Source of the DNA: Methanosarcinales archaeon
GTDB taxonomy: Archaea; Halobacteriota; Methanosarcinia; Methanosarcinales; Methanogasteraceae
Assembly (NCBI GenBank): GCA_030605805.1
Contig: JAUWHQ010000049.1
Location: 6,863-30,862 of the forward strand
Reading direction: 5' to 3'
DNA: 24,000 bases
Position numbers and translations under genes: made by a program. The notes under the pieces are model-generated. The model made no database searches and had not been told where the DNA came from. It saw only the letters and a program-made list of their open reading frames with translations. Each line of letters starts with the position of its first letter. Position 1 is the stretch's first letter. This document shows positions 1,642 through 21,180 of the stretch, piece by piece.

Positions 1642-2934
1642 ATGAGAGCAAGTATACGGGTTGGAATAACTATGACTTTGCTGCTGCTGGTGCTCCCAGC
1701 CGCGGCATCAGACTACACGCTTGGCGTCTTCGGCAATGCGAACGAGGACGACACAGTAAACATGCAGGATGTGACGTACACCGAACTGATCATCCTCGAA
1801 TACAGAGATAGAACTGAGCTTGCAGACGCCAAGTACGACGACAAGATCAACATGCAGGATGTGACGCAGATCGAGCTTGTCATTCTTGGAAAAGAGAAGG
1901 AGCTCACATTCGTGGACGGCTTCGGTGAAGCGATGACTGTCGAAAAGCCAGTGGAACGTATTGTCAGCGTATGGTGCACCAATAATGAACTGTTGAAGGT
2001 GCTTGACGCAACCGACAAGATCGTTGGCATAGACGCCGGCATGACCGGGAAGAGTACAACCCTCTTCCCAGAGATCAGTGCTCTGCCGGATTGCGGAGGC
2101 TGGCATGCACCAAATTTCGAGGCGATACTGAGCCAGCATCCTGACATGTACATCCCGTGGCTCATCACAACGGATGATCCAGAGTCCAGCTATGGCATCA
2201 TACGCAAGAGATTCCTGGAGGAGAAACTCGTAAGTGTTCCGGTTCTCTGCATCGACAATAGCGAATACCGCACAGGAGAGTACTTTGTGGAAGAACTGGA
2301 ACGGCTTGGATACATCCTTGATAGGCGAGACGAGTCTGAAGAGTTCACCGAGTTCTATAAAGAGTGCACGGATCAGGTCGCAGAGCAGACAGAGGGACTG
2401 ACCGATGATGAGAAGCCGAGGGTGTGGATCACATCGCTCTTCTTCTCAGGTGGCGAGGTGACAGGTTCGCCTTACGCTTACTCCATCTTTGACCCGGTCG
2501 ATCTCGCAGGTGCAAGAAACATAGCCGAGGGTCTGCCCGGGGGTATGAGGGTGGATCTTGAATGGGTGATTGAGCAGAATCCTGAGTACATATTCATACA
2601 GATATGGGCTGCCGGGAACAGAAAATCGCCTTATGCGCCAGATTACTCGATATCAACGGTAGAAGAACAGGTGAACACAGTCCTGAACTGTCCTGAACTC
2701 GCAAATGTGGATGCTGTGAAGAACGAGAGGGTCTACGTTGTGCAGTATTCACATTTCAGTAAAGGGACATCCCGGTGTTTATGCGTTGCCTACCTGGCAA
2801 AACTGCTCCACCCGGAACTATTCGAGGAGATGGATCCACAGGCGATGCATCAGGAGTATGTAGACCGATTCCTGGGCATGGATGTCAGCGTTGAGAGTGG
2901 TAATTTCCTGTATCCAGCGTTGGAGGAGAGTTGA
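1642..2934 (+). CDS. Second secreted ABC-importer substrate-binding protein (Peripla_BP_2-like) with the same N-terminal dockerin-like module
   Basis: The ORF opens at 1609, but ATG 1642 matches the paralog starts (MRASIRVGITMTLLLLVLPAAA|SDYTLGVFGNANEDD...) and the SD spacing. The dockerin at 1708-1902 is about 89% nucleotide-identical to 416-610 (about 21 mismatches in 195 nt by hand alignment). The binding domain is strongly diverged from gene 1. The C-terminal block LHPELFEEMDPQAMHQEY is shared. Confidence 0.85.
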   Translation: MRASIRVGITMTLLLLVLPAAASDYTLGVFGNANEDDTVNMQDVTYTELIILEYRDRTELADAKYDDKINMQDVTQIELVILGKEKELTFVDGFGEAMTVEKPVERIVSVWCTNNELLKVLDATDKIVGIDAGMTGKSTTLFPEISALPDCGGWHAPNFEAILSQHPDMYIPWLITTDDPESSYGIIRKRFLEEKLVSVPVLCIDNSEYRTGEYFVEELERLGYILDRRDESEEFTEFYKECTDQVAEQTEGLTDDEKPRVWITSLFFSGGEVTGSPYAYSIFDPVDLAGARNIAEGLPGGMRVDLEWVIEQNPEYIFIQIWAAGNRKSPYAPDYSISTVEEQVNTVLNCPELANVDAVKNERVYVVQYSHFSKGTSRCLCVAYLAKLLHPELFEEMDPQAMHQEYVDRFLGMDVSVESGNFLYPALEES

Positions 2935-2964
2935 TGGGAATAAAACCCTAAAGAGGTAATATAC

Positions 2965-3452
2965 ATGAGACTAACTACAATAGTGGTTGGAATAACCATG
3001 TCGTTGCTGCTGCTCGCACTGCCAGCAGCAGCGTCAGACTACACACCATACTTCTGGTCTGCATCCCGTTACTGTTATGGAAATCGTGGGACCTCAATGT
3101 GATGGGTGTAGGAGAGGAGACTGCAAAGAGCCTTGGTGTAAATGTCGAGCGGACCCGAATCGGTGGGATGATGCTTGCATCGTTCATCACCGCAGTTATT
3201 ATATGTTTCACCGGAATGATCGGGTTTATAGGTCTGGTTGCTCCGCATATCACCCGTATGTGCATCGGTGGAGATAACAGATTTGTACTCCCGGCTTCGG
3301 CACTCTTCGGGGCTGCTTTTCTGGTTGCAGTGGGTATCATCGCAAGAGAAGTCGTAGCACCGGTGATCATCCCCGTGGGGATCATCACATCCTTCGTGGG
3401 AGGTCCTCTCTTCCTTTATCTCATAATACGAAAGAAGAAGGAGTACTGGTGA
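2965..3452 (+). pseudogene. Chimeric remnant: leader, signal peptide and first 4 dockerin codons fused out of frame to the last quarter or so of a FecCD-type permease
   Basis: 2965-3044 encodes MRLTTIVVGITMSLLLLALPAAASDYT, preceded by AGAGG. From 3045 a different frame reads TILLVCIPLLLWKSWDLNVMGVGEETAKSLGVNVERTR...GGPLFLYLIIRKKKEYW, colinear with the C-terminus of 8847-10220. The 45-codon leader ORF stops at 3100-3102, overlapping the GTG/ATG of ORF 3099-3452. Confidence 0.8.
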
Positions 3453-3454
3453 AG

Positions 3455-3690
3455 ATGAAACCGGATATACATGACATAGACTGGAATGGTATGTGGAAGG
3501 ACGCGATAGGGGAGTCGAACTGGAAGCAGAAAGCCGGGATGCCTGAGTTTCAGGGACTGGACGGGTTGACTGGTTCGAGGAACTGGTCCGGCAGAGTGAC
3601 CGTGCAGGGATGATCATGAACCGGATCGAGGTGAAACCGGACTACACGGTTCTTGACATCGGTGCAGGTCCGGGCACGGTTACAATTCGT
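3455..3690 (+). pseudogene. Degraded 5' fragment of a class I SAM methyltransferase, paralog of 5206-6030
   Basis: MKPDIHDIDWNGMWKDAIGESNWKQK... runs to a stop at 3611-3613. A second frame then reads MNRIEVKPDYTVLDIGAGPGTVTI (SAM motif I), after which similarity ends. Compare MIEEIDWNKMWMDATENASWRKR...CTVLDIGAGPGTLTI in the intact gene. Confidence 0.75.
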
Positions 3691-3745
3691 GACCGCTTCC
3701 GATTCACTTATTATGACGGATATGACTCAAAAAGGAGGAAGAACA

Positions 3746-4174
3746 ATGGAAATGAGTAAAGAGATACAGGATATGATAAACGAGAACGTGGTCCATCTGG
3801 CAACCACATCCGGAGATGGCGTACCGAATGTGGTTCCTGTGGGCGGCATACGTGCGATAAGTGACAGCGAGCTCTTGATCGTGGATGTCTTGTTTGACAA
3901 GACGAAGAAGAACCTGATCGAGAACCCGCGTGTTGCAATCGCTATTGAGGTGCTCGGAAAGGGAGCGCCGCGTGGATACCAGCTCAAAGGGCGGGCAACG
4001 ATTCACACGAGCGGTAAGCTCTTCGATGCGGCAGAGAAGATGGTGGAGAGGATGGCAGAGGAGATGCGAAAGAGAGGCTCCGGTCACCATCCGAGCCTGA
4101 CTGTGAAATCCGCGGTTCACGTGGACGTGGAAGCGATATACTCTACGGTCCGCCAGAAGAAGGAGGAGAACTGA
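3746..4174 (+). CDS. Pyridoxamine-5'-phosphate-oxidase-like (split-barrel FMN-binding) protein
   Basis: The ORF opens at 3653, but its first 31 codons derive from the methyltransferase remnant. AGGAGG lies 7 nt before ATG 3746. VVHLATTSGDGVPNVVPVGGIRAISDSELLIVDVLFDKTKKNLIENPRVAIAI is the typical PNPOx-family N-terminal pattern. Confidence 0.7.
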   Translation: MEMSKEIQDMINENVVHLATTSGDGVPNVVPVGGIRAISDSELLIVDVLFDKTKKNLIENPRVAIAIEVLGKGAPRGYQLKGRATIHTSGKLFDAAEKMVERMAEEMRKRGSGHHPSLTVKSAVHVDVEAIYSTVRQKKEEN

Positions 4175-4175
4175 T

Positions 4176-5201
4176 ATGCGAGTCATGGACACGATCCCGG
4201 AGATCGGTTCGGAACCGCTGGACCGGATGACGAAAGGCTGCGAAGCATCGAATATACTGCGAACAGCCATTGATTTTGACCTCTTCGATCTGCTCGAGGA
4301 GTCAAAGACCGCGGAGCAGGTATCATCAGAGACCGGAACCGTTGCATCATTTACAGAGAAGTTTTTAAATGCGCTCTGTACGATAGACCTCCTCTCAAAA
4401 CGTGATGGGAAGTATGCGAACACAAAGCTTGCTTCAACCTTCCTTGTGAAGAAGAGCCCGTTTTACCAGGGAAATATGATCAGACTTTTCAAAAACAGCT
4501 CTCTCAACTGGTCAAGACTGGGTTCGGCAATGAAAGGAGATCTGCCAGATGAGACCGGTGAAAGACCTGAAAGGGTCTTTGATTCCGGTTTTATTCTGGC
4601 GATGGCTGAGGGTTCAATGCGGGGAAGCCTTCATCAAACCGTAAAAGAAGTGTCGGCTCTTCCCGAATTTAAGAGAGCAAGAACGCTTCTTGATCTTGGC
4701 GGCGGGCACGGGCTCTATGCGATAGCGTTTGCTGAGACGAATCCGGAACTTGATGCCACGGTCTTTGATCTGCCGCCTGTAACAGAGGTCACACAAGAGT
4801 TCATCGGAAGGTACGGCATGGACGAGAGGGTCAGTGTCATCGGAGGGGACTTTGCCATGGATGAGATCGGACAGGGATATGACATCGTCTTTGCGTCCGA
4901 CGTCTTCTACCGGAAGCCGGATGCGCTTTCGGGTATTTTTGAGAAGATACACGGTGCGCTGAATGATGGCGGTTCAATCATGCTCAAGCACTGGGTCTTG
5001 AACGATGACCGGACCGCCCCACCCACATCGGTTCTCTTCGATCTGATGCTCTCCCTGCGAGGGGGGAATTGGCATCACATCTATACCGAGGTTGAGTATA
5101 TCGAGCTACTCAAAGGTGCGAGGTTTTCAGATATTCGCGTTCTGGACGTATCATCCCAGGTAAGCCCGTCTGTTGTCATCGTCGGAAATAAAGAGGCATG
5201 A
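4176..5201 (+). CDS. SAM-dependent O-methyltransferase (family 2 type, with N-terminal dimerisation/wHTH-like region)
   Basis: LLDLGGGHGLYAIAFAETNPELDATVFDLPPVTE...RVSVIGGDFAMDEIGQGYDIVFASDVFY matches the Methyltransf_2 pattern (DvGGG.G, FDLP.V, GDFF). AAGGAGGAG lies upstream of the ATG. Confidence 0.8.
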   Translation: MRVMDTIPEIGSEPLDRMTKGCEASNILRTAIDFDLFDLLEESKTAEQVSSETGTVASFTEKFLNALCTIDLLSKRDGKYANTKLASTFLVKKSPFYQGNMIRLFKNSSLNWSRLGSAMKGDLPDETGERPERVFDSGFILAMAEGSMRGSLHQTVKEVSALPEFKRARTLLDLGGGHGLYAIAFAETNPELDATVFDLPPVTEVTQEFIGRYGMDERVSVIGGDFAMDEIGQGYDIVFASDVFYRKPDALSGIFEKIHGALNDGGSIMLKHWVLNDDRTAPPTSVLFDLMLSLRGGNWHHIYTEVEYIELLKGARFSDIRVLDVSSQVSPSVVIVGNKEA

Positions 5202-5205
5202 GATC

Positions 5206-6030
5206 ATGATCGAAGAGATAGACTGGAATAAGATGTGGATGGATGCGACTGAGAATGCCTCGTGGAGAAAGCGACGTGGGAATATGACAGAGTTCTGGAA
5301 TAAGAGATCCCGGCGGTATAGCGAGTCACTGAAGCACAATGATCGCTCTATGCAGATAATATCAAAATTGGATATTGATCCGGAGTGCACCGTACTTGAT
5401 ATCGGTGCAGGACCGGGTACGCTCACAATTCCACTCGCAAGAATCGTTAAACACGTAACGGTCGTGGAACCATCGATCGGAATGCTCGCCTGTCTGAAAG
5501 AGAATACGGCAGATGAGGGACTTACGAACATAACCTGCATAAACCGGAAATGGGAGGATGCCGTGCCCGGTGTGGATTTTGATGAGCACGACATTGTGAT
5601 AGCATCCTATTCGCTTGCGATGCTCGATATGAAAGCGGCACTATCGAAGATGAATGAGGTTGCAAGACGATCTGTTTACCTGTTCACCTTTGCAGGAGGT
5701 CGTGCATGGGATTATAACGAACTCTGGCCCAGATTGTATGACGAGGAGTATCGAGCAGCGCCCGATTACATCTATCTCTACAACATCCTCCACGGGATGG
5801 GTATCCACGCTGATGTTGAGATCAGAGAGACCGAGTACAAAGAGCGTTTCTCAAGCATGGACGAAGCGGTGGAGCAATGGATGGAGAACCTTGATTCCAC
5901 AACTTCGGGGGCAGAGGAAGTGATCAGATCGCACCTATCAGAGAATCTGGTTAAGGAAAACGGGGCATTCTGGTCGAAACATGAAATGAAGGGCGCTATG
6001 ATACACTGGAGGAATGACAATGGGAATTGA
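5206..6030 (+). CDS. Class I SAM-dependent methyltransferase
   Basis: The ORF opens at 5173. ATG 5206 fits both the SD (AAGAGG) and the paralog fragment start. Motif I is VLDIGAGPGTLT, followed by VVEPS and DIVIASYSL. Confidence 0.8.
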   Translation: MIEEIDWNKMWMDATENASWRKRRGNMTEFWNKRSRRYSESLKHNDRSMQIISKLDIDPECTVLDIGAGPGTLTIPLARIVKHVTVVEPSIGMLACLKENTADEGLTNITCINRKWEDAVPGVDFDEHDIVIASYSLAMLDMKAALSKMNEVARRSVYLFTFAGGRAWDYNELWPRLYDEEYRAAPDYIYLYNILHGMGIHADVEIRETEYKERFSSMDEAVEQWMENLDSTTSGAEEVIRSHLSENLVKENGAFWSKHEMKGAMIHWRNDNGN

Positions 6031-6394
6031 GATAAGAACGATCGACGAAGCCGAAGGTCTTGAGACTTCGGAAGGTGTGATGAAGCCACTCTTATTCGGC
6101 GAGAATCTGGCGGTTATGCATCTTCTGATTCCGGCGGGTCTTGAGGTCTCACCTCATGCGCACCCGGGAGAAGGCGTTCTGTACTGTCTGAGCGGCGAGC
6201 TGGATGTTGTATCGGGAGGCGAAACTGTGACGATTTCCAGTGGAACTGCGATGCTGGTTCCGCCCGGCACAGAGGTTGGCATCAAGAACCAGAAGGATGC
6301 AGCCGTGAATGCGCTGCTGATCTCATCTCCGCCAACTGTGAGATCGGTTGAGGAACTCACAAATCTTATAACCAGTCACAAAGAAGGTAAATAA
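6014..6394 (+). CDS. Cupin-domain protein
   Basis: The two-motif cupin pattern is present (H.HPGEGVLYCLSGE...G.....G....P.G......N). GGAGG at 6008-6012 favours ATG 6020 as the true start over 6014. Confidence 0.7.
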   Translation: MTMGIEIRTIDEAEGLETSEGVMKPLLFGENLAVMHLLIPAGLEVSPHAHPGEGVLYCLSGELDVVSGGETVTISSGTAMLVPPGTEVGIKNQKDAAVNALLISSPPTVRSVEELTNLITSHKEGK

Positions 6395-6396
6395 CG

Positions 6397-6525
6397 ATGT
6401 GTAGGCACGAAGAATGCTTGAACGATCATGGACACGATCCTGAGAAGTGTACGTCAGAGCAGATACGAAAGTGCCACGGCGACGCCGGGACGCACCCATG
6501 CAACTGCGAATGTGATTGTAGATGA
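6397..6525 (+). CDS. Unlisted 42-aa Cys/His-rich small protein; candidate metal-binding peptide
   Basis: It reads MCRHEECLNDHGHDPEKCTSEQIRKCHGDAGTHPCNCECDCR, with 8 Cys and 5 His. It starts 2 nt after the cupin stop, and its stop overlaps the ATG of the ABC ATPase (ATGA at 6522-6525), exactly filling the intergenic gap. It falls below the ORF-track length cutoff. Confidence 0.55.
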   Translation: MCRHEECLNDHGHDPEKCTSEQIRKCHGDAGTHPCNCECDCR

Positions 6526-7301
6526 TCGAAGTTGTTAACCTCACCAAGAGATTCAGGGACTTCACAGCCGTGGATCGCATAAGCTTTGAGGTATCTGCAG
6601 GCGAGATATTCGGGTTTCTCGGTCCGAACGGTGCTGGAAAGACGACTGCGATCATGATGCTCACAACCCTACTGCGCCCGAGCGGTGGCAGGGCTACGGT
6701 CTGCGGACTCGATGTCTCAAGAGAACAGGGAAAGATCAGGCGGAAGATCGGCGTGGTCTTTCAGGACCATACCAGCGATGACTGGCTGACTGGAAGGGAG
6801 TATCTAAAGCTTCATGCCGGGATATATGATGTCAGCATGGACCGGGTCAATGATCTCCTCAGACTCTTTGACCTGAAGAAGTGGGAAACTTCGGTCATAA
6901 AGGAGTACTCGAGCGGGATGCGGCGGAGGCTGGAGATCGCACGGGGGCTGATCCACTATCCGGAGGTTCTATTCCTCGATGAGCCGACACTGGGGCTCGA
7001 CGTCCAGACAAGGCAGAGGATCTGGGACCACATCGAGTCGCTCAGAAGAGATGATGGGCTCACCGTCTTTCTGACCACCCATTACATGGATGAGGCTGAT
7101 AAAGTCTGCGACAGGATCGCGATCATCGACCATGGGCAGATCGTTGCAATCGGCACACCTGAGGAGTTGAAATCGGTCGTGGAGGGGGCTCGCACAACGC
7201 TGGACGAGGTCTTTCTCCATTATACAGGCAGAGATACGCGAGACCGGATATCTGCAACCGGATTCAATCACCCGATGGGTTTCGGGAGGCTGCACCGGTG
7301 A
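6522..7301 (+). CDS. ABC transporter ATP-binding protein (ABC-2 / DrrA-NatA-like exporter type)
   Basis: Walker A is GPNGAGKTT, the signature is YSSGMRRRLE, Walker B is VLFLDEPTLGLD, and the H-loop is TTHYMDEA. Confidence 0.9.
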   Translation: MIEVVNLTKRFRDFTAVDRISFEVSAGEIFGFLGPNGAGKTTAIMMLTTLLRPSGGRATVCGLDVSREQGKIRRKIGVVFQDHTSDDWLTGREYLKLHAGIYDVSMDRVNDLLRLFDLKKWETSVIKEYSSGMRRRLEIARGLIHYPEVLFLDEPTLGLDVQTRQRIWDHIESLRRDDGLTVFLTTHYMDEADKVCDRIAIIDHGQIVAIGTPEELKSVVEGARTTLDEVFLHYTGRDTRDRISATGFNHPMGFGRLHR

Positions 7302-8071
7302 ATCATGGCGCAAACTGGCGGGCTGATCTGAAGGCGGTGCATGCGATCGCCAGAAGAGAGGTAATACGGTTTCTGCGTGCAAAGTCACGGATCGTGGCAT
7401 CGGTAGCGATGCCGCTCATCTGGTTTTGTGCATTCGGACTCGGGCTTGGCTCGGCATTCGGAATGAAACATGGCGAAATCGGCTATGCAGAGTTCCTGGC
7501 TCCGGGAATCGTTGCGATGACTGTCCTCTTCGCAGCAACCTTCTCTGGCATGTCGATCATCGTGGACAAGGAGTTCGGAATCTTAAAAGAGCTCCTCGTC
7601 GCCCCTATATCGAGGGTTTCTCTCGTTTTAGGGAAGCTCCTCGGAGGCATGGCAACGTCGCTCATCAGAGCGATACTGATAGTGATTCTGTTCTGCGTGA
7701 TGCTGGAGATAGAGATGGGCGTTCTCGAGTACTGCGGAGTGTTTGTTGTTGTATGCCTGATAGCCATCGGATTCGGAGGACTGGCGATTGCGATCGCAAC
7801 AAGGATGGAAAGCATGGAGGGATTCGGACTGATCGTGGAGCTTATCGTCATGCCCATATTCTTCTTAAGCGGTGCTTTCTTTCCGGTTGAGGGGTTGCCG
7901 GGGTGGTTCTCAACTGTGGTCGTTTTAAATCCGCTCACGTATGGTGTGGATGGGCTCCGGCTTCTCATGATCGGCGCAGGGAGCTTTAGTTTACTGCATG
8001 ACTTTGGCGTGCTCATCGTCTTTGATCTGGTCGTTGTTCTCTTCGCGGCATACCTCTTCGGGAAGGGGTAG
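7298..8071 (+). CDS. ABC-2 type transporter permease
   Basis: The GTG start overlaps the ATPase stop (GTGA). The product is 257 aa with about 6 hydrophobic segments and the usual ABC-2 layout, adjacent to a DrrA-like ATPase. Confidence 0.8.
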   Translation: MNHGANWRADLKAVHAIARREVIRFLRAKSRIVASVAMPLIWFCAFGLGLGSAFGMKHGEIGYAEFLAPGIVAMTVLFAATFSGMSIIVDKEFGILKELLVAPISRVSLVLGKLLGGMATSLIRAILIVILFCVMLEIEMGVLEYCGVFVVVCLIAIGFGGLAIAIATRMESMEGFGLIVELIVMPIFFLSGAFFPVEGLPGWFSTVVVLNPLTYGVDGLRLLMIGAGSFSLLHDFGVLIVFDLVVVLFAAYLFGKG

Positions 8072-8150
8072 AGACGTAGGCTAAGACTCGGATTGTCGAA
8101 GTGTGGGGTGTGAAAGAGTGGGTGGTTTGTCTACTGATTCATGTTATGCT

Positions 8151-8266
8151 GATGATCGAAAGTCTTAAGTAATGAATTAAGTATCTATAATTCGCATGCG
8201 CTATGTAACATATATCGTGCATATAACTACATAAAGTAAAAATCCGCCATAAGGAGATATTATACA
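8151..8266 (+). promoter_or_regulatory. Leader cassette copy B
   Basis: gatgatCGAAAGTCTTAAGTAatgaat is followed by cTATAATTcg. The hairpin arms ATGCGC/GTGCAT (8196-8222) enclose ATGTAACAT (8203-8211). AAGGAG lies before ATG 8267. Confidence 0.6.
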
Positions 8267-8842
8267 ATGGGAATGAATACAACATTGGTTGGAATAGCCC
8301 TGGCAATGCTCTTGCTGGCATTGCCCGCGGCTGCATCTGACTACACGCTCGGCATCTTCGGGAATGCAAACGAAGATGACACAATCAACATGCAGGATGT
8401 GACGTACACCGAGCTAATCATCCTCGAATACAGGGACAGAACAGAGCTTTCCGATGCAAAGTATGATGATAGGATCAACATGCAGGAGGTCGATGACTGG
8501 ATCTTCGATGACATCACAAAGACGTTCATCCTCGACGATGAGATGCGGAAGTTCTTCGAGGAGAACAACCCGTGGGCGCTCGAAGAGATCGGAAGAATGC
8601 TCCTTGAGGCTTATGAGCGAGGACTGTGGGATGCAGACCCTGAGGTGATCGACGGACTGAAGAACGCATACCTCGAGATGGAGGGCTGGATCGAGGAGCG
8701 CATGGGCGACGTGAAAGGCGACTTCCAGGGCGGATCGATCGATGTGATGACGATGGCGGATGTCGCCGGCTGGAAGGAGAAGGTCGAGAAGGTCCTGAAG
8801 ACCGGATCCGATATACGAGTCAGTCAAGGAGAGGTGACGTGA
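8267..8842 (+). CDS. Chimeric ORF: signal peptide plus 1.5 dockerin repeats fused in frame to a CobN / Mg-chelatase-H C-terminal tail
   Basis: Residues 1-75 (to nt 8491) are MGMNTTLVGIALAMLLLALPAAA|SDYTLGIFGNANEDDTINMQDV...DAKYDDRINMQEV. The remainder, DDEMRKFFEENNPWALEEIGRMLLEAYERGLWDADPEVIDGLKNAYLEMEGWIEE, matches the conserved extreme C-terminus of CobN/ChlH/BchH (..EMR..L.E.NP......FLEA..RG.W......I..L...Y.E.E..IE). Confidence 0.7.
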   Translation: MGMNTTLVGIALAMLLLALPAAASDYTLGIFGNANEDDTINMQDVTYTELIILEYRDRTELSDAKYDDRINMQEVDDWIFDDITKTFILDDEMRKFFEENNPWALEEIGRMLLEAYERGLWDADPEVIDGLKNAYLEMEGWIEERMGDVKGDFQGGSIDVMTMADVAGWKEKVEKVLKTGSDIRVSQGEVT

Positions 8843-8846
8843 TAAT

Positions 8847-10220
8847 ATGGCTACGGCAACGGGAGAAAGTCACACAGTAACCGCAGACGAGATCAGAGAG
8901 CAGTACAAGAAGTTCGTCGGAAGGAAGATATTCTTCATCTTCTTCTTCATAGCCCTGATCGTCGGAATAACAGGAGTCTCCACATCGCTCGGGTCTGCAG
9001 ACCTCACGGTCTGGGACTCTTATTCATCGATACTCAGAAAACCGTTCCCGAATACGTTCGAGTCAAAGTATATCTTCACATTGGACGATGTTCCTGGAAG
9101 CGATGGTGAGAGACTCAAACAATACCTCATAGATGAATACGGTATCGTCTGGGTGCAAAGTGCAGAGATCAGCAAATCCGCGGACGGTAAAATCACTATT
9201 ACCGGTGAAGGTGACAATAACGTCGAAATCATGCTTGATGAAAGGGATACGGAAAAAATGACCGTAAAAATCAGCGGTGATATAGATCCGGGTCACAGAG
9301 TCAACGATTTCAAAGTTAAAGAGGTGAACGGCGAGCTCCACATACACGAGTCGACATGGCTTGCAGATGTCTGCGTCTGGAATCTCAGGCTCCCCAGAAT
9401 CATCCTCGGCATCGTGGCAGGCATCGGTCTTGGACTTGCAGGTGCGGTGATGCAGGCGATACTCAGAAATCCGCTTGCAAGCCCGTACACGCTCGGAATC
9501 TCGTCAGGAGCGGGGTTCGGCGCTTCGCTTGCAATTCTCGCTGGTGCAGGCTTCGTCGGTGGGAAATATCTTATCATCGGAAACGCATTCGTATTCGCGC
9601 TGCTGGTTTCGTTTATCATCCTCGGATTATCGAGCCGCAAAGGCGCAACGCCTGAAACGATGATTCTCGCGGGTATTGCGATGATGTACCTATTCGGCGC
9701 GATGACAACAATTCTTCAGTACTTTGGCGAGGCAGAGGCTGTGAAGGAAGCTGTCTTCTGGATGGTTGGTGACCTCAACAGGGCATCGTGGTCCGTTGTG
9801 ACGATCGTGTCGGTTGTGATCGCTCTCTGCACCCCATACCTCCTGGCAAAGTCCTGGGACCTGAACGTGATGGGCGCAGGAGATGAGACTGCGAAGAGTC
9901 TTGGTGTGAATGTGAAGCGCACCCGGGTCACAACGATGATTGTCTCAACAGTAATGGTCGCAACCATCGTCTCTTTCACAGGCACGATCGGGTTCATCGG
10001 GCTCGTTGCCCCGCACATGACACGTCTGGCTATCGGAGGCGATAACAGGTACGTGCTTCCGGTTTCAGGTCTCTTAGGTGCGGTGATTCTCATCAGCGCA
10101 GACCTTGTGGCAAGAAGGATCATAGCTCCTGTAATCCTCCCTGTTGGAGCGGTGACCGCATTTATGGGAGCTCCACTCTTTCTTTACCTGATAATGAGAC
10201 GAAGGAGGGAATACTGGTGA
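8847..10220 (+). CDS. FecCD/BtuC-family ABC importer permease with a ~96-aa insertion in the first extracytoplasmic loop
   Basis: The C-terminal 330 aa or so are typical FecCD (WNLRLPRI, NPLASPYTLGISSGA, GDETAKSLGVNV, FIGLVAPH, EYW). 9066-9353 has no counterpart in the paralog 11002-11997. Confidence 0.85.
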   Translation: MATATGESHTVTADEIREQYKKFVGRKIFFIFFFIALIVGITGVSTSLGSADLTVWDSYSSILRKPFPNTFESKYIFTLDDVPGSDGERLKQYLIDEYGIVWVQSAEISKSADGKITITGEGDNNVEIMLDERDTEKMTVKISGDIDPGHRVNDFKVKEVNGELHIHESTWLADVCVWNLRLPRIILGIVAGIGLGLAGAVMQAILRNPLASPYTLGISSGAGFGASLAILAGAGFVGGKYLIIGNAFVFALLVSFIILGLSSRKGATPETMILAGIAMMYLFGAMTTILQYFGEAEAVKEAVFWMVGDLNRASWSVVTIVSVVIALCTPYLLAKSWDLNVMGAGDETAKSLGVNVKRTRVTTMIVSTVMVATIVSFTGTIGFIGLVAPHMTRLAIGGDNRYVLPVSGLLGAVILISADLVARRIIAPVILPVGAVTAFMGAPLFLYLIMRRRREYW

Positions 10221-10984
10221 AACTAAGAGTAAACAATGTCGAATTCGCATACAATAGCACGCCAGTTCTTGAAAGCATATCCATGGAACTGGATCGATCA
10301 GAGATGCTCGGCATCGTGGGTCCGAACGGTGCCGGCAAATCCACGCTGATCCGGTGTGTCGACCGGATCCTGACTGCAAGAGGAGGAACCATCCTCCTGG
10401 ATGAGAATGACATCAGCAAGATGACGAGAATGGAGATTGCAAGGAGGATGGGCTATGTGCCCCAGACCACGACACGCGTCTTTCCTGCCACGGTCTTTGA
10501 CACCGTCCTCATGGGAAGACGCCCGCATCTCGGATGGAAGAGTAGCGAGGAGGACGTGGACAAAGTTCTGGAGATTCTGGAACTCCTCGGGATCATGGAG
10601 TTTGCGATGAGGGACTTTAACGAGATCAGCGGAGGTCAGCAGCAGAAGGTCCTGATCGCACGGGCGCTTGCGCAGGAAGCGGATATTCTTCTACTGGATG
10701 AGCCCACAAGCAATCTCGACATACGGCACCAGCTCGAGGTGATGGATATCATGAAGGGCATCGTGAGGAAGAAGGGGATCTCTGCGATCGTTGCGATCCA
10801 TGACCTGAACCTTGCTTCGAGATACACCGATAGACTGCTCATGATGAATGGCGGCAGGATCTTTGCAGCAGGGGATCCTGAGTCGGTGCTCACTGTTGAG
10901 AACATCAGGCGTGCTTATGGTGTGGAAGCACTGGTGAAGAGCGATGGAGAGAGACCGTACATCATTCCGGTGAGACCGGTGTGA
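10217..10984 (+). CDS. ABC importer ATP-binding protein (FepC/FecE/BtuD-like)
   Basis: The GTG start overlaps the permease stop (GTGA). Walker A is GPNGAGKST, the signature is ISGGQQQKV, Walker B is ILLLDEPTSNLD, and the H-loop is AIHDLN. Confidence 0.9.
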   Translation: MKLRVNNVEFAYNSTPVLESISMELDRSEMLGIVGPNGAGKSTLIRCVDRILTARGGTILLDENDISKMTRMEIARRMGYVPQTTTRVFPATVFDTVLMGRRPHLGWKSSEEDVDKVLEILELLGIMEFAMRDFNEISGGQQQKVLIARALAQEADILLLDEPTSNLDIRHQLEVMDIMKGIVRKKGISAIVAIHDLNLASRYTDRLLMMNGGRIFAAGDPESVLTVENIRRAYGVEALVKSDGERPYIIPVRPV

Positions 10985-11001: not shown

Positions 11002-11997
11002 ATGTCGGTATCAACAGGGAGGATAGCGCTCTTTGTGGTCGTTCTCCTGCTCACAATCGTGGCTTTGGTGGGCAGTTCCGTAGTCACCGGATCTTCAGCT
11101 GTAACCGTGGACGATGCCCATTCTGCAATCCTGCACAAGTTCTTCCCGGACCGCTATGAGCCGAACTGGCTTGCAGATGTATGCGTCTGGAATCTCCGGT
11201 TTCCCCGCATCCTCCTTGCCATACTGGCAGGCATCTCTCTCGGGGCTGCGGGCGCTATCATGCAGTGGGCACTTAAGAATCCGCTTGCTTCGCCATACAC
11301 GCTTGGAATTTCACACATAGTGGCGTTCGGCACATCTATTACCATACTCTTTGGCTTTGGATATATTGGAGGGAAATTCGTTATCATAGGGGCTGCCGGA
11401 ATCTCTGCCCTGATAGCGACAGTGATCATCCTTTATATCTCAAGCCGCAGGTGGGCGACCCCTGAACGGGTCGTACTGATAGGCATCGTGATGATGATTC
11501 TCTTCGGTGCATTGACTACGATACTCATGTACTTTGGCGCGGCAGAGGCTGTGAAGGAGGCGGCATTCTGGATGGTAGGTAGCCTCAACCGGGCATCGTG
11601 GAACGTGCTGGCATACATGGCTGGCACAATTGTGCTCTGTGCGATTCTCCTACTCCTGCTGATCTTCCTGCCATCACTCTTCGGTGTAGATGAGAGGCGT
11701 ATCAGAACATCTGCAATGGTTGTTGCGAGTCTTCTTACCGCAATCACGGTCTGTTTCACAGGAACGATTGGATTCGTCGGGCTATTGGCTCCGCATATCT
11801 GTCGTCGGGTCATCGGAGATTATCCCAGGTTTGTAATTCCGGTATCAGGACTTGTTGGCGCGGTACTGCTACTTGGATCGGACCTGGTGGCAAGAACGGT
11901 CATTTCACCGGTTATTCTCCCTGTGGGTGTGTTGACAACACTGATGGGTGCTCCGTTACTTGTGTATCTCATAGTGCGAGAGGGGATAAGAGGTTGA
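11002..11997 (+). CDS. Second FecCD-family permease, probable heterodimer partner
   Basis: WLADVCVWNLRFPRILLAILAGISLGAAGAIMQ, NPLASPYTLGIS and GFVGLLAPH are present. The conserved L..G...A.SLG.N block is replaced by LFGVDERRIR, a roughly 10-aa deletion relative to 8847-10220. Confidence 0.8.
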   Translation: MSVSTGRIALFVVVLLLTIVALVGSSVVTGSSAVTVDDAHSAILHKFFPDRYEPNWLADVCVWNLRFPRILLAILAGISLGAAGAIMQWALKNPLASPYTLGISHIVAFGTSITILFGFGYIGGKFVIIGAAGISALIATVIILYISSRRWATPERVVLIGIVMMILFGALTTILMYFGAAEAVKEAAFWMVGSLNRASWNVLAYMAGTIVLCAILLLLLIFLPSLFGVDERRIRTSAMVVASLLTAITVCFTGTIGFVGLLAPHICRRVIGDYPRFVIPVSGLVGAVLLLGSDLVARTVISPVILPVGVLTTLMGAPLLVYLIVREGIRG

Positions 11998-12269: not shown

Positions 12270-12402
12270 GTGAGGTGGTCGAGACTGCAAAAAAAGGCAG
12301 GAACTTGCTTGATGAAGAATCCTGCAAGGTCTCCAGCGTATGGTCTGAAAGATCGTGGGTATGGATAGCGGGCAACAGATTTACTGGTTTATGATACGAT
12401 AC

Positions 12403-12511
12403 TGATCGAAAGTTTTAAGTTCTGAATAAAAAGATTCACAATTTACACGCGTGATGTAGCATATATTGTGTATGTAATCACACAAAATAAAAAATAAGAG
12501 GTTAATATACA
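12403..12511 (+). promoter_or_regulatory. Leader cassette copy C
   Basis: tgatCGAAAGTTTTAAGTtctgaat is present. The hairpin arms ACACG/TGTGT (12445-12471) enclose ATGTAGCAT (12454-12462). AAGAGG lies before ATG 12512. Confidence 0.55.
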
Positions 12512-12787
12512 ATGAGAATAAATACAATATTGATTGGGATAATCATGCTGTTATCAACATTACCAGTGGCTGCGTCCGACTGCACACTCGAGATCTCCGG
12601 CAATGCCAACGAGGATGACACCATAGATATGCAGAATTTGACTCATACCAAATCCATCATCCTCGAATACGGAGATCAGACCCAAGCTCGGAGATGTAAA
12701 CAACGATGGCAGGATCACCACAGCAGACTCGCTGCTCGCACTCCGGATGGCTGCCGGGAGTGTGGCTCCGGACATGGAACGCGCTGA
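12512..12787 (+). CDS. Signal peptide plus half a class-A dockerin; apparently the frameshifted 5' end of the giant surface-protein gene
   Basis: MRINTILIGIIMLLSTLPVAA|SDCTLEISGNANEDDTIDMQNLTHTKSIILEYGDQT is homologous to the other leaders up to about 12680. Beyond that point this frame is noise, and the +1 frame reads KLGDVNNDGRITTADSLLALRMAAG. Confidence 0.6.
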   Translation: MRINTILIGIIMLLSTLPVAASDCTLEISGNANEDDTIDMQNLTHTKSIILEYGDQTQARRCKQRWQDHHSRLAARTPDGCRECGSGHGTR

Positions 12788-15700
12788 TGTGAATGCCGAT
12801 GGCAGGGTGAACTCGCTTGATGCGCTCATGATACTGATGATGGCAGAGAAGACGCAAGTGTGTGTCAATGCTCCGGAAGTTGTGTCTGGTACGTTTGAGG
12901 TCACGATCGACATCCACAATGTTGCTGATCTCGATTCCGGGCAGTTCGATCTCTCGTTTGATCCGGGTGTTGTAAACGTGACTGCGGTCTATGACGGAAA
13001 CATAGCCGGCAGACAGGTGCCGGTAGAGTCATGGAAGTTCATGGACGCAGGTACGATTCGCGTGCTCTTCAATACCATCGGTATCTGCGGGGTCAGCGGG
13101 TCCGGATATGTGGCAAGGATAGACTTTGAGGTAACCGGATCGCATGGGGATATTAGCGTTCTGGACTTATCGGATGTGGGGCTTGTTGATACGGGCGCAG
13201 GTGCGATACCAGCAGTCCGGATTGATGATGAGGTGACCATTGGAGAGCATACTCCGGTAAATCAGGTTCGCAACATAAACACTGGTGAAATCTTTTCCTC
13301 CATCAAGGACGCAATCAATGACTATGATACATCGGATGGGCATACAATCGAGGTCGGAGATGGTGTTTACCACGAGAACGTGAAAGTCACCAAATCCCTA
13401 ACGATTCGGTCTCTGAATGGGTCCGCTGATTGCATTATTCAGGGTGCAAGGCGACGTGAGCATGTCGTTACAGTAACCGCAGATTGTGTGAATGTGAGCG
13501 GTTTTACGGTGAATGGAGCAACATCCCGTAAAGCCGGGATATATCTTAATGCAGGTTACTGCAACGTTTCCACAAATAACTGTTCAAATAATTATATCGG
13601 CATCCACCTCGATGGTTCAAACAACAACATCATATCGGGCAATGACTGCTCAAACAACGGGGGTGAAGGTATCTACCTTGACGGTTCAAGCAACAACCGC
13701 GTATCAAGCAATAATTGCTCGAACAACAGGGGCGATGGCATCTACATCAGTGGTTCAAGCAACAACAAATTAACAGGCAATATCATGTTTGAAGGTGGGA
13801 TATTTATCGGGGGCGACTCACTGAGTGATTACACGCATGAGATAGACGAAACGAATACGGTGAACGGAAAACCAGTTTATTACCGGAAGGATATTGAATG
13901 TGGGAGAATCCCCGACGGAGCTGGTCAGGTAATACTTGTGAATTGCAGGGACGTTCTGGTTGAAAATCAAGAATTGAACAATGGGGGCGTTGGTGTAGAA
14001 GCGGTCTTCTCTTCAAATATCACAGTAAGAAACAACAATTGCTCGAACAACCGACATGATGGCATCTATTTCTTTCATTCAAGTAACAGCGCCATATTGG
14101 GCAATAATTGCTCGAACAACCGACATGATGGCATCGACCTCGATGGTTCAAGCGACAACAGCATATCAGGCAACAACTGCCCAAACAACCAACGCGGCAT
14201 CGACCTCGATGGTTCAAGCGACAACAGCATATCGAGCAATAATTGCTCGGATAACTGGGTTGGCATTGACCTCGATGGTTCAAGCAACAACAACATATCA
14301 GGCAACAACTGCTCAAACAACCAACGCGGCATCTATTTCTCTCATTCAAGCAACAACGCCATATTGGGCAATAATTGCTCGAACAACCACGGGGGTGGCA
14401 TCTGCCTCTATTGTTCCAGTAACAACGATATATCACGCAATAATTGCTCAGATGGTGGGGCTGGCATCCGTCTCTGGGGTTCAAGCAACAGCAAATTAAC
14501 AGGCAATATCATGTTTAAAGGTGGAATAGTTATTGAGGGTGGTTCACTGAGCGATTACGCGCATGAGATAGACAAAAGCAACATAGTGAACGGTAAGCCG
14601 GTTTATTACTGGAAGGATGTGGACGGGGGACGCATTCCAGATGGTGCCGGGCAGGTAATTCTCGTTGATTGCAGTAATGTTTTGGTTGAAGAGCAGAACT
14701 TAAACGATTTGGACACCGGTATAACAGTCGCTTTCTCTTCCTATCTTACTTTAAAAAACAACAACTGCTCAAATAACCGGGGTGGCATCCGCCTCTATGA
14801 ATCAGGTAACAACCGCATATCTGGCAACAATTGCTCAAACAACAACCAACGTGGCATCGACCTCGATGATTCAATCGACAACAGTATATCCGGTAATAAT
14901 TGCTCGAACAACCACTGGAATGGCATCAGCCTCGGTGGTTCAAGCAACAACCGTATATCGGACAATACTTGCTCAAACAACTGGAATGGCATCAGCCTAT
15001 ATGGTTCAAGCAACAACCGCATATCGGACAATACTTGCTCAAACAACGAGGGGGATGACGTCTGCCTCTGCAGTTCAAGCAACAGCAAATTAACAGGCAA
15101 TATCATGTTTGGGACTGGAATAATCATTAGTGGCAGATCACTTAGCTGTTACATGCATGAGATCGACAAAACGAACACGGTGAACGGAAAACCGGTTTAT
15201 TACTGGAATGATATCAAATCCGGGAGAATTCCCGAAGGAGCGGGTCAGGTAATACTTGTGAATTGCAAGGATGTTCTGGTTGAAGATCAGGAATTGAACA
15301 ATGTACGCGTTGGTATAGACGTGGTATTCTCTTCATATATTGTGATACGAAACAATGATTGCTCAAAAAACAAGCATGTGGGCATCCGCCTCTATGAATC
15401 CTGCAACAACGCGGTATCAAGCAATAATTGCTCAAACAGCCGGAATGGTATCTATCTCGAGGAATCATACAGCAATGCTATATTCCTTAACAATTTTATA
15501 AACAACACCGATAACACCTATTTCCGTTCCTCCACAAACATCTGGAACTCAACAGCAAGGATAAACTACACCTACAAAGACATGCCGTTCACGAACTATT
15601 TAGGCAACTACTGGGATGATTACGAAGGAAGCGATTTGGGCGGGGATGGAATTGGCAATTCGCCCCATGATATATGTCCGGACGTGGATAATTTCCCGTT

Positions 15701-18700
15701 GATTGCGCCTTTTGAGAATTACTCTGCACAAACAGAGAATATGATGATAGTCGATGTCAATGCTCCGGAAATCATATACGGCAGATTCGATGCAACGATC
15801 GACGTCCACCATGCTATCAATCTCGATTCCGGGCAGTTCGATCTCTCATTCAATTCAAGCATCGTGAACGTGACCGGTGTCAATGCAGGAAACATAAACA
15901 GCACAACGGTACCAATCGCCCGCTGGTATTTCACGAATGCGGACACGGTCAAGGTGATCTTCAAACTGGATGGTGGGGGTGGGGTCAGCGGATCAGGATA
16001 TGTGGCAAGGATAGACTTTGCGACGGTAGGACCGCAGGGTTATTCATGCGTTCTGGATATATCAAACGGAAAGCTTGTTGATACGGGTGGAGTGGAGCTA
16101 TCAGCTGTCTGGTTTGATTGCGAGGTTGAGGCACCCATCGGAGTGCCGGTTATCGTTAACGCTCCTCCGGTTGTATCTGGTGCATTTGAGGTTATGATTG
16201 ATACCGAGAACGTGACTGATCTGGACGGCGGGCAGTTCGAGCTCTGGTTCGATTCGGATGTTGTGACTGTTGAAGATGTGGGGGTGGGAAGTATAGGCGA
16301 TACAGAGATACCAGTTATGTGGAGTTTTAGGAATGCAGATACTATTATGGTTGCCTTCAATCTTCCTGGTCTCCGTGGGGTCAGCGGGTCCGGATATGTG
16401 GCGAAGATAAGCTTCGCGATAAAGGGATCGCAGGGTGACATGAGCGCCCTTGATATATCCCATGGGCTGCTTGTTAACAACCGTGCGGATAAGATACCAG
16501 CGATCTGGATTGATGATGAGGTGACCATTGGAGAGCATATTCCAACGAATCGTGTCCATAACATCAACACCGGCGAAGATTTCTCATTCATCCAGGGTGC
16601 AATAGACGATCCTGATACATCGGACGGGCATATAATCGAGGTCGAGGATGGCGTTTATCGTGAGAATGTAAAGGTCACCAAATCCCTGACGATCCGGTCT
16701 CTAAATGGGTCTGCAGATTGTATTATTCAGGATGCGGGAAGTGACAATGTCGTTAAGATAACCGCGGATCATGTCAATATCAGTGGTTTTACGGCGATGA
16801 GACGATTAGTAGGAACCGCATTCTATAGCGCAGGAATCTACCTCGGTGCAAGTTACTGCAACGTTTCCAACAACACTTGCTCAAACAATGGTATCGGTAT
16901 CCGCCTCGATGGTTCGAGCAACAACCAGATATCAAGCAACGATTGCTCGAAGAACGAGCGGGCTGGCATCCGCCTCCATAGATCATGCAACAATAGCATA
17001 TCGAACAATAATTGCTCAAACAACAGCCGCAATGGCATCGACTTCTATTATTCGGGCAACAACCGGATATCAAACAACGATTGCTCAAACAATGAGCAGG
17101 CTGGCATCCGCCTCTATTATTCACGCAACAACAGATTAACAGGTAACGCCATGTTTGAGAATGGAATAGTCATCCGTGGTGATTCACCGGACGATTACAC
17201 GCATGAGATCGACGAAACGAACGTAGTGAACGGAAAACCGGTTTACTACTGGAAGGATATCGAATCCGGGAGAATTCCTGAAGGGGCGGGACAGGTAATA
17301 CTTGCGAATTGCATGGGCATACTGGTTGAGAACCAGGAATTAAATAATGCAAGCGTTGGTGTGGAAGTAGCTTTCTCTTCAAATGTCACTGTAAGAGACA
17401 ATACTTGCTCAAACAACCATGATGTGGGCATCCACTTCTTTTATTCAAGCAACAGCAGCATATCAAGCAACGATTGCCAGAATAACTGGAATGATGGAAT
17501 CTACTTCCATGGTTTGAGCAGAAGCAGCGTATCAAACAACACTTGCTCAAACAGCAACTCCACCGGTGTCCACTCTGGCATATACGGCTGGATGCTCCCG
17601 GACAGCGACTCGGATGGGATCCACCTCAATGATTCAAGCGACAACAGCATATCGGACAATAATTGCTCGAACAATGAAGGAACTGGCATCAACATCATTG
17701 ATTCAAGCAACAACAGCATATCAAACAACATCTGCTCAAACAACCATGGTGGCATCTGCCTCAGCGGATCAAACAACAACATATCGAACAATAGTTGCTC
17801 GAACAACCACGAGGGCATCTGCCTCGGTGATTCAGACAACAGCAGATTAACAGGCAACATCATGTCCGAGAACGGAATAGTCATCCGGAGCGGTTCACCG
17901 GGCGGTTACACGTATGAGATCGACGAAACGAACACGGTGAATGGAAAACCGGTTTATTACTGGAAGGATGTGAACGGGAAAAGCATTCCAGATGGTGCCG
18001 GGCAGGTGATACTTGTGAATTGCGAGGGTGTTCTGGTCGAGAATCAGGAATTGAATAATGCAAGCGTCGGCGTAGAAGTAGCTTTCTCTTCAAATGTCAC
18101 CGTAAGAGGGAATAATTGCTCAAACAACCATGATGTGGGCATCCACTTCTGGTGTTCAAACGACAACGCCATATCGGGCAATAATTGCTCAAACAACGGG
18201 CGTGATGGCATATTCCTCTATGATTCAAGCAACAACAGCATATCGGGCAATAACTGCTCAAACAACCAACGTGGCATCGACCTCGATGATTCAAGCAACA
18301 ACCGCATAGCAGGCAATAATTGCACGAACAATGAGTGGACTGGCATCCACCTTGGTGGTTCATATAACAACGTATCAGGCAATAATTGCTCGAATAATCA
18401 TGGTGATGGCATCGGTTTATCCGGATCAGGCAACAGCGTATCGAGCAATGATTGCTCGACGAACCATGACGATGGCATCCACCTCTATGGTTCGGACACC
18501 GCCTGCATATCTAACAACGATTGCTCGACGAACTGCCGGGCGGGTATCCGCCTCTATCGATCAAACGACAACAGCATATTAAGCAACACCTGCTCAAACA
18601 ACCGGGACGGCGTCCTCATCTTTTTCAATGACTCATACAGCAATGTTATATATCTAAATAATTTTATAAATAATTCTGATAACATTGCCACCCAGTCCTC

Positions 18701-20313: not shown

Positions 20314-21180
20314 ATGACGAGGATGAACCCTATCACAAAGAAGATATTATCAATCGCACTGCTTATGTTGCTCGTAATCGGTGCGGCAGCAGACGATGAG
20401 GTTGAGATCGACCCTGACGCAGATGTCAATGTCACTATCAACGCACCCGAATATGTGTCAGAAGATACGTTCGAGGTCACGATGGATGTTACGGAGGTTA
20501 CCGACTTTGATTCGGGGCAGTTTGATCTCATGTTTGATCCGGACGTCATAAATGTGGTGGATGTCACGGATGGAAACATAGAAGATATCAAAATATCGGT
20601 AGACATGTGGCGTCACATGGATGATGACCGGGTCAGGGTGATCTTCAATGCCGATGCAGGTGCTGAGGGGGTAAGCGGATACGGATATGTAGCTAAGATT
20701 GCATTTGAGGTTGTGGGGGATATCGGAGATACCAGTGCCATTGACATGTCTGATGAGTTTGAGAGGGGGCTCTACTATTTAGAGCCGAGAGAGGGTTACG
20801 ATACGGTAGGCCCAGCTGATCTCCCTGCAAACTGGTTCGGCACCACCGTAACCATCGGCACCGCACCAGCGGTGTCAGATGAGATCCCGACGCCCGCGCC
20901 CGCCGAGACACCAGCGGTCAATGCAACACCGGACTTGGAATCGACATCAGCACCGACGCCGACCGAAACGCCAATAGAGACATCGCTTGAGCTATCATCC
21001 AACCCACTCGGAATGACAGCGCGTGCGGAGAGCGCACCTGCCGCGGCAGTGCCGGGCGCATCATCAGAATCATCAGAAGACGGCGGATTGCCGGATATAC
21101 CAGCAGCGTGCGATCTCATCCCGATCTACTCGCTTGTCGGACTGCTCGCCTTAATTTATGCATTAACACAATTCAAATGA
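20314..21180 (+). CDS. Membrane-anchored cohesin protein: signal peptide, one cohesin-like module, Pro/Thr/Ser stalk and C-terminal hydrophobic anchor
   Basis: The N-terminal hydrophobic segment is KKILSIALLMLLVIGAAA. The cohesin lies at about 20425-20862 (VTINAPEYVSEDTFEVTMDVTEVTDFDSGQFDLMFDPDVINVVDV...GVSGYGYVAKIAFEVVGDIGDTSAIDMS). The stalk reads PTPAPAETPAVNATPDLESTSAPTPTETP, and the C-terminus is IPIYSLVGLLALIYALTQFK. Confidence 0.8.
   Translation: MTRMNPITKKILSIALLMLLVIGAAADDEVEIDPDADVNVTINAPEYVSEDTFEVTMDVTEVTDFDSGQFDLMFDPDVINVVDVTDGNIEDIKISVDMWRHMDDDRVRVIFNADAGAEGVSGYGYVAKIAFEVVGDIGDTSAIDMSDEFERGLYYLEPREGYDTVGPADLPANWFGTTVTIGTAPAVSDEIPTPAPAETPAVNATPDLESTSAPTPTETPIETSLELSSNPLGMTARAESAPAAAVPGASSESSEDGGLPDIPAACDLIPIYSLVGLLALIYALTQFK

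Follow-up and report, generated by a model that had tools for sequence, protein, structure and literature searches.

The chimeric open reading frame and its operon

The 24,000-nucleotide (nt) stretch analysed here (the window) covers positions 6,863 to 30,862 of contig JAUWHQ010000049.1 from a Methanosarcinales archaeon (assembly GCA_030605805.1) and contains, at 8267-8842 on the forward (+) strand, a 191-amino-acid (aa) open reading frame (ORF) in which a signal peptide and dockerin-like leader (aa 1-72) run in frame into the very C-terminal end of a CobN-type chelatase (aa 73-178). This composition, put forward in an original prediction made from the sequence letters, was confirmed, and judged by profile searches and alignments it is real and far beyond chance. 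The ORF begins with ATG, ends with TGA (8840-8842) and has the predicted Shine-Dalgarno (SD) sequence, AAGGAG at 8251-8256, 10 nt ahead of its start. As had also been predicted, its stop lies 4 nt before the ATG (8847) of the gene directly downstream. This gene encodes a FecCD/BtuC-type permease of 457 aa on the same strand (8847-10220; Pfam FecCD, E = 1.3e-90) with orthologs at the related loci L001, L004, L005, L014, and L028, and is followed by the ATP-binding cassette (ABC) ATPase of the same importer (10217-10984, +; Pfam ABC_tran, E = 3.2e-33) and by a second FecCD permease (11002-11997).

The tail of the chimera

The cobN-derived tail occupies 8483-8803 (aa 73-179) and corresponds to residues 1144-1250 of the CobN encoded by Ca. 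Argoarchaeum ethanivorans (L005), an assignment that draws on Pfam, NCBIfam, the PDB, and the sequences of relatives. A comparison of the tail with Pfam CobN-Mg_chel (PF02514), proposed as a check in the original prediction, returned significant profile similarity (E = 2.4e-19, 69.2 bits at a cut-off of 24.5), with aa 73-127 aligned to positions 1035-1089 of the 1090 in the profile. The NCBIfam profile NF004646 matches aa 69-178 at its positions 1167-1276 of 1277 (E = 4.7e-51), the equivalog score of the chimera being 173 bits against a cut-off of 1468. Among known structures, residues 1160-1229 of the 1230 in Mycobacterium tuberculosis CobN (7c6o; E = 3.4e-13) and residues 1279-1348 of the 1351 in ChlH (4zhj) align with the tail, and the heme dechelatase HmuS (9d26) also matches. 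Identity reaches 88.6% to residues 1144-1248 of the L005 CobN and 92.8% to the tail of the intact cobN on a JGI contig (L028). The prediction that about 117 codons match CobN stood in so far as the tail is highly CobN-like, but only 106 codons (aa 73-178, plus T179) stem from cobN, and the last 12 are former spacer.

The tail consists of the last helices of domain VI and the family-specific C-terminal ~35 aa. In HmuS, CobN, and ChlH, domain VI is helical and extended, consists of two armadillo-like repeats, and packs against the body of the protein (PMC12583661). An AlphaFold2 model of the chimera, computed from a 35-sequence alignment, has a mean predicted local distance difference test score (pLDDT) of 52, with helices at residues 77-146 scoring 74-89 and residues 1-75 scoring below 50. 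The full-length chelatase architecture of about 1100-1400 aa, whose domains I-VI form the substrate cage, is absent, the intact proteins of relatives measuring 1250-1267 aa. Since every element of the substrate cage is missing and about 5% of the Pfam CobN model is kept (55 of 1090 positions), the chimera cannot be a chelatase. A ChlI/D-like sequence was not found in the window either: a tblastn search with the ChlI/D protein of L005 gave no match at E ≤ 1, while the gene is present in L005 and in a Methanosarcinaceae metagenome-assembled genome (MAG; L007).

The leader of the chimera

The leader belongs to a cassette that recurs in the window, with copies at 213-570, 1659-1862, 2946-3044, and 12382-12720 besides the one at 8118-8490. 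Its upstream part (8118-8266, +), delimited by blastn and by alignment with paralogous cassettes, consists of an AT-rich 5' region, presumed to hold an archaeal promoter and 5' untranslated region (UTR), and the SD sequence. A block of ~130-150 nt of this kind, GAAAGTYTTAAGTA ... ACGCGnnATGTAACATATATnGTG ... CCATAAGGAG, stands ahead of several genes for exported proteins (213-346, 8118-8266, and 12382-12511, as well as positions 1-149 of L001). The L001 copy is 88% identical to the window cassette over its whole length, upstream region plus leader. The repeated block is probably a shared promoter and 5'UTR and possibly includes a regulator site. A scan of the whole window against Rfam at gathering thresholds gave no match; the 5' region of the cassette is not a known RNA element.

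Read from the sequence and homologous to the N-termini of substrate-binding proteins (SBPs), the signal peptide spans aa 1-24 (MGMNTTLVGIALAMLLLALPAAAS; 8267-8338, +). It is followed by a first dockerin-like repeat (aa 31-54; 8357-8428, +) with the calcium loop GNANEDDTINMQD and a helix, and by a second, truncated repeat (8453-8487, +) in which the loop DAKYDDRINMQ(E) is kept and the helix after it is lost; at this place the intact cassettes read ...DDRINMQDVTQIELIIL. Over residues 1-74/75 the chimera is 81-85% identical to the N-termini of the Peripla_BP_2 proteins encoded at 347-1612 and 1609-2934. These paralogs carry PF01497, for which the Pfam search of the chimera gave no match. Among the proteins that carry dockerins in ANME archaea (anaerobic methanotrophs), the binding proteins of ABC importers are common (Chadwick et al., 2022; PMC9012536).

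The alignment with intact cassettes agrees with the prediction that the second repeat is cut at ...DDRINMQEV. The description as 1.5 dockerin repeats was borne out in that repeat 2 lacks its helix, but its calcium loop is still whole, only the succeeding helix having been replaced, and Pfam Dockerin_1 (PF00404) has no match in the chimera at E ≤ 10. Even intact leader cassettes reach only E = 0.07-0.29 with this model. When a profile of 17 intact leader cassettes was compared with the PDB, 12 of the 14 matches were dockerin-bearing (E = 0.012-0.8), and the profile aligned over both repeats with the dockerin structures 1daq, 2mte, and 2ccl (E about 0.012-0.05), so that repeat 1 is identified through this profile and lies below the Pfam threshold. 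The label "dockerin" is reasonable for the leader, if statistically weak, and the chimera lacks what defines a type I dockerin, namely two tandem calcium-binding loop-helix segments recognised by the family profile. Matches to cohesin (PF00963) exist in the window at 20314-21180 (E = 1.8e-10) and 21188-22933 (E = 8.3e-10) and would be candidate partners of the leader.

The window and an otherwise nearly identical ENA contig (L002) differ at six places in the chimeric ORF, five of them clustered within about 20 nt of the signal-peptide region (8295-8340 in the window, 7832-7877 in L002) and none in the tail, which suggests gene conversion among leader cassettes.

The proposed ancestral operon and the deletion

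Related loci were collected through the permease gene from genome and metagenome collections. In L005, a dockerin-tagged SBP gene (2173-3423) is followed by genes for a ChlI/D-like AAA+/VWA protein of 770 aa (3917-6229), a CobN of 1250 aa (6220-9972), the permease (from 10007), and the ATPase, and the gene order in L007 is the same. In L028, whose contig begins inside cobN, an intact cobN of at least 997 aa stands directly ahead of a 457-aa permease that is 87% identical to that of the window. In three relatives, then, the orthologous permease and ATPase genes are immediately preceded by an intact cobN, and the parent genes of the chimera are intact and colinear in L005 and L007 over the full order and in L028 from cobN to the permease, with the intervening genes missing in the window. 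By the coordinates of L007 and L005, about 6.8-7.3 kb are missing from the window: the SBP gene except for its 5' end, the entire ChlI/D gene, and cobN up to about codon 1143.

This synteny bears out the prediction that a chelatase gene once sat beside the importer, and the dockerin-SBP gene expected ahead of it was found in L005 and L007. It also supports the predicted deletion, but cobN was not the neighbor of the SBP gene: a ChlI/D-like gene (711-770 aa) lies between the two in relatives and was deleted as well.

The deletion junction (8483-8487, +) was located by codon-level comparison with the paralogous SBPs and the intact cobN of L005 and L007. Intact SBP leaders read ...AAC ATG CAG GAT GTG ACG CAG (NMQDVTQ), intact cobN reads ...ACA ACA CAG GAG GTC GAT GAC TGG (TTQEVDDW), and the chimera has AAC ATG CAG GAG GTC GAT GAC TGG. 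The five nucleotides CAGGA are shared between the SBP and cobN codons, and therefore the crossover is placed there. Such a junction is the signature expected of an illegitimate, microhomology-mediated deletion.

The 3' end of the ORF has a history of its own. In L028 and L001, cobN ends with ...AAG GTC TGA TCC GAT..., and the window has GGA (8804-8806) in place of the ancestral TGA. According to the alignment with L028, L001, L005, and L007, the reading frame now runs through 12 codons of the former spacer between cobN and the permease gene (G180-T191; 8804-8839, +) to a new TGA at 8840-8842. The spacer of the window carries a 2-nt indel, and the SD sequence of the permease (AAGGAGAGGTGA, 8826-8837) lies inside the read-through. 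Because it results from the loss of a stop codon, the 4-nt gap to the permease is secondary and not the original architecture.

We propose that the ancestral operon would have encoded a dockerin-tagged SBP, a ChlI/D-like AAA+/VWA subunit, a CobN-type chelatase, the FecCD permease, and the ABC ATPase. Illegitimate recombination over CAGGA would then have removed the missing DNA and left the SBP upstream region, the SD sequence, the signal peptide, and one and a half dockerin-like repeats attached in frame to the final 106 cobN codons. A later T-to-G change would have destroyed the cobN stop, so that the ORF extends through the old spacer almost to the permease start.

Recurrent deletions at the same position

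At the same position, the Methanosarcinales MAG CSMAG_1137 (L001/L003) encodes a 144-aa chimera, P0007, that joins SBP aa 1-93 to CobN from residue 1198 to the end. More of the SBP is thus retained than in the window, with the two dockerin repeats and the first part of the binding domain, and less of CobN; the halves meet at another microhomology, around GATCGAC (...CTG ATC GAC GGA...). The idea that one chimera arose from the other by a simple further deletion was rejected in both directions, as each has a segment that is missing from its counterpart. Other relatives have reached different states. L004 has only a leader ORF of 47 aa, joined directly to the spacer, and L008 has an intact SBP gene followed by a frame-broken 3' remnant of cobN. 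In L014 and L029 a methyltransferase gene abuts the permease and no cobN remnant is left, and L006 (ANME-2c) begins inside a cobN tail.

Intact and deleted loci do not separate in a neighbor-joining tree built from the permease core but alternate: L004 pairs as a sister with the intact L028 and L008 with the intact L007, and L001 groups with the intact L005 and L028. This interleaving implies a minimum of four independent deletions, which differ in their end points and are represented at the same position by the 144-aa chimera, the 47-aa leader-only ORF, the frame-broken tail, and the window.

Public protein data contain additional remnants of the same cobN tail, joined to different 5' partners or internally deleted. 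P0134 (98 aa) combines a leader with the final 52 residues of the tail, in which conserved positions have changed; P0234 (63 aa) has a cobN tail behind an N-terminus resembling a response-regulator receiver domain (MQILIVEDE); and in P0005 (L039, 236-748) CobN residues 798-848 are joined in frame to residues 1132-1248.

Scar or functional gene

In our view the chimeric ORF is very probably a deletion scar, most likely without any function at the protein level. The feature plausibly preserved by selection is the promoter and translation start of the cassette, under whose control the permease and ATPase genes would now stand; a deletion that took these signals away or extended into the permease gene would have been eliminated. 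The loss of the cobN stop and an R-to-M change in the tail (R118 of the chimera), at a position invariant across the aligned tails, lean weakly towards relaxed constraint.

Several points weigh against this interpretation. The ratio of non-synonymous to synonymous substitution rates (dN/dS) of the tail against the intact L028 is 0.09, with a dS of 0.29 and no excess of amino-acid change, and when changes are polarised with outgroups the window branch has six synonymous and three non-synonymous changes, as compared to five and three on the branch of the intact L028. The low ratio fits a recent deletion, and equally well continued purifying selection on the peptide. Moreover, both independent chimeras, in the window and in L001, are in frame and equipped with a start codon, an SD sequence, and a signal peptide, and the promoter function ascribed to 8118-8266 is deduced solely from the conservation of the upstream cassette. 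A non-neutral fusion, with selection repeatedly keeping a short secretion-leader ORF before the permease as a coupling device or as a surface-exposed domain VI fragment, would explain the two in-frame chimeras and the low dN/dS of the tail; we regard it as improbable.

One form of this idea is that the chimera is kept as a translated leader ORF through which the permease and ATPase genes are translationally coupled or tuned, in which case frame and length would matter and the peptide would not. It would account for the position of the stop just ahead of the permease start, for the inclusion of the permease SD sequence in the ORF after the stop loss, and for the finding that both independent chimeras are in frame and end near the permease, the one in L001 stopping 33 nt upstream. 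However, intact relatives manage with an untranslated spacer of 28-46 nt, L004 offers only its 47-aa ORF, and the methyltransferase gene that L014 and L029 have at this position is unrelated. Two in-frame junctions are expected by chance in about 1 in 9 cases, chimeras found by protein searches are biased to in-frame cases, and the second scar of the window, described below, is out of frame. Such a leader function is therefore considered unlikely.

Alternatively, the chimera might be a new functional exported protein, which uses its signal peptide and hybrid dockerin to present the final helical repeat of CobN domain VI at the cell surface. The intact start, SD sequence, and signal peptide, the complete calcium loop of repeat 2, the confidently modelled tail helices (residues 77-146), the low dN/dS, and the cohesin genes nearby would all suit such a role. 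On the other hand, the leader is poorly modelled (pLDDT below 50 for residues 1-75), the tail is an incomplete part of domain VI that represents about 5% of the Pfam CobN model, and the stop loss adds translated spacer to it. Nor is there a conserved family, and relatives keep tails of differing length or none. A HMMER scan of 1.84 billion cluster representatives yielded a single full-length match, the chimera's own cluster, so that a widespread family of the whole 191-aa protein, which the original prediction had named as counter-evidence, did not emerge. All other matches aligned query residues 70-178 to the C-terminus of CobNs of 1150-1340 aa, or residues 1-77 to the N-terminus of SBPs of ~410-460 aa. 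The chimeric architecture is accordingly not conserved as a family, and the junctions of P0007 and P0134 differ. A functional exported protein thus seems very unlikely.

With sequences taken from metagenomes and several copies of the leader cassette in the genome, an assembler could have joined SBP-gene reads with cobN reads. An artificial junction is nevertheless highly improbable and was rejected, because the identical junction is present in L002, an independently assembled and non-identical contig (97.6% identity over the cassette, product differing by 1 aa), and because the 5 nt shared at the junction are far below assembler k-mer sizes; other MAGs, moreover, have analogous but different junctions. 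A back-translated pattern for the junction peptide NMQEVDDWI had no match in JGI metagenome contigs and thus yielded no further alleles of this junction. Finally, a natural stand-alone family of short CobN-tail proteins, of which the window member would have acquired a leader, was suggested by the many 100-330-aa CobN-tail proteins in a first homology search, some of them on long contigs, but has next to no probability and was rejected, since the two long-contig cases inspected (P0037 and P0033) are the last pieces of cobN genes split in three (834 + 301 + 132 aa in L040; 412 + 667 + 190 aa in L041), others of the short proteins open with CobN sequence in a shifted frame or lie at the edges of contigs, and the exhaustive search places the tail at the C-terminus of 1150-1340-aa proteins.

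Other remnants and neighboring genes

The window contains a second scar at 2946-3452. Here a leader fragment (cassette copy at 2965-3045, within a 45-aa ORF at 2965-3102, MRLTTIVVGITMSLLLLALPAAASDYT...) is fused, out of frame, to a FecCD C-terminus comprising the last ~134 codons (3048-3449; ORF 3099-3452; Pfam FecCD positions 202-311 of 311). L014 has a full third SBP and a 359-aa permease at the corresponding position. Adjacent to this scar, at 3467-3687, two N-terminal methyltransferase fragments, each in its own frame, have a paralog in the 285-aa gene at 5173-6030 (aa 13-41 and 49-86) and look like a broken pseudogene.

Another decayed CobN piece, LFEVTAAYTTINEFTVAVKHVSGKEVATYYGDIRDPDRHVVRDI, forms the last ~45 residues of a 2178-aa NosD/beta-helix ORF (12747-19283). 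This segment (~19101-19241) matches positions 944-990 of the Pfam CobN model below threshold (E = 5.8e-5), is 43-57% identical to CobN fragments, and is a second cobN remnant in the window that is fused in frame to an exported protein. The leader of the same giant NosD-like protein (12512-12787) is split from its body by a 1-nt insertion (~12686) relative to L002, where a single ORF encodes 2256 aa; this reflects either a frameshift pseudogene or a sequencing error.

The permease at 8847-10220 has an insertion of ~90 aa (aa ~77-165) after its first transmembrane helix. The insertion is shared by L001, L004, L005, L014, and L028, whose permeases measure 455-457 aa where the gene is complete (that of L004 is cut by the contig end), and is absent or much shorter in L006, L007, L008, and L009 (about 360 aa where a complete ORF could be read).

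The window starts inside the 3' end of a NifH-like gene (5-133), and L014 carries NifD/K/H-like genes and a methyltransferase gene (5360-9991) between two copies of the importer. Together with the PNPOx-like, O-methyltransferase, methyltransferase, and cupin genes at 3653-6394, the Nif-like genes look like a tetrapyrrole- or cofactor-modification cluster.

Implications and comparison with known systems

The scar provides direct sequence evidence that a class I chelatase, composed of CobN and a ChlI/D-like subunit, was ancestrally part of a BtuCD/FecCD-type importer operon in Methanosarcinales related to ANME-2 and GoM-Arc1. In these organisms at least four independent events have removed the chelatase genes and spared the transporter, and the chelatase appears to be dispensable for the importer in several lineages. 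This repeated loss bears on the role of archaeal CobN homologs, which has been raised as a question in connection with HmuS (PMC12583661). In L040 (1427-10079; GCA_900175145.1), the split cobN (three ORFs) is followed in order by genes for a ChlI-like protein, a ChlD-like protein, a FecCD permease, and an ABC ATPase, and therefore the linkage between chelatase and importer is not restricted to these archaea.

Because the remnant is in frame and carries a secretion leader, automatic annotation would call it an intact gene. Remnants of this kind pass gene callers and receive names such as "cobaltochelatase CobN", as related fragments do at JGI, and they can inflate chelatase counts in metabolic reconstructions from MAGs.

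Two protein families and one class of genomic object invite comparison. With the class I chelatases and dechelatases CobN, ChlH, BchH, and HmuS (PF02514; 7c6o, 4zhj, 9d26) the chimera shares homology of aa 73-178 to the extreme C-terminus. However, 106 of about 1250 residues are left, domains I-V, most of domain VI, and the ChlI/D partner gene are gone, and the remaining piece cannot bind tetrapyrroles or metals in the way these enzymes do. CobN and ChlH are cytoplasmic, whereas the tail of the chimera sits behind a secretion signal. With the dockerin-tagged SBPs of ABC importers in ANME archaea and Methanosarcinales, both in the window and in relatives, it has the upstream region, SD sequence, signal peptide, and dockerin-like repeats in common, but it lacks the whole binding domain (PF01497) and its second repeat is truncated. 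By descent the chimera thus belongs to the CobN family and to the dockerin-tagged SBPs alike, and it fails the defining features of both, that is, the full-length architecture, the partner subunits, and the binding domain.

Microhomology-mediated deletion scars and chimeric remnant ORFs are well-known products of decaying operons. The locus resembles them in its short microhomology, the intact genes in relatives, the several end points, and the fragments nearby, and differs from the usual scar in a reading frame kept by chance and an attached secretion leader. The chimera is a fresh instance of a well-known object, a microhomology-mediated deletion chimera, in what is otherwise ordinary operon decay.

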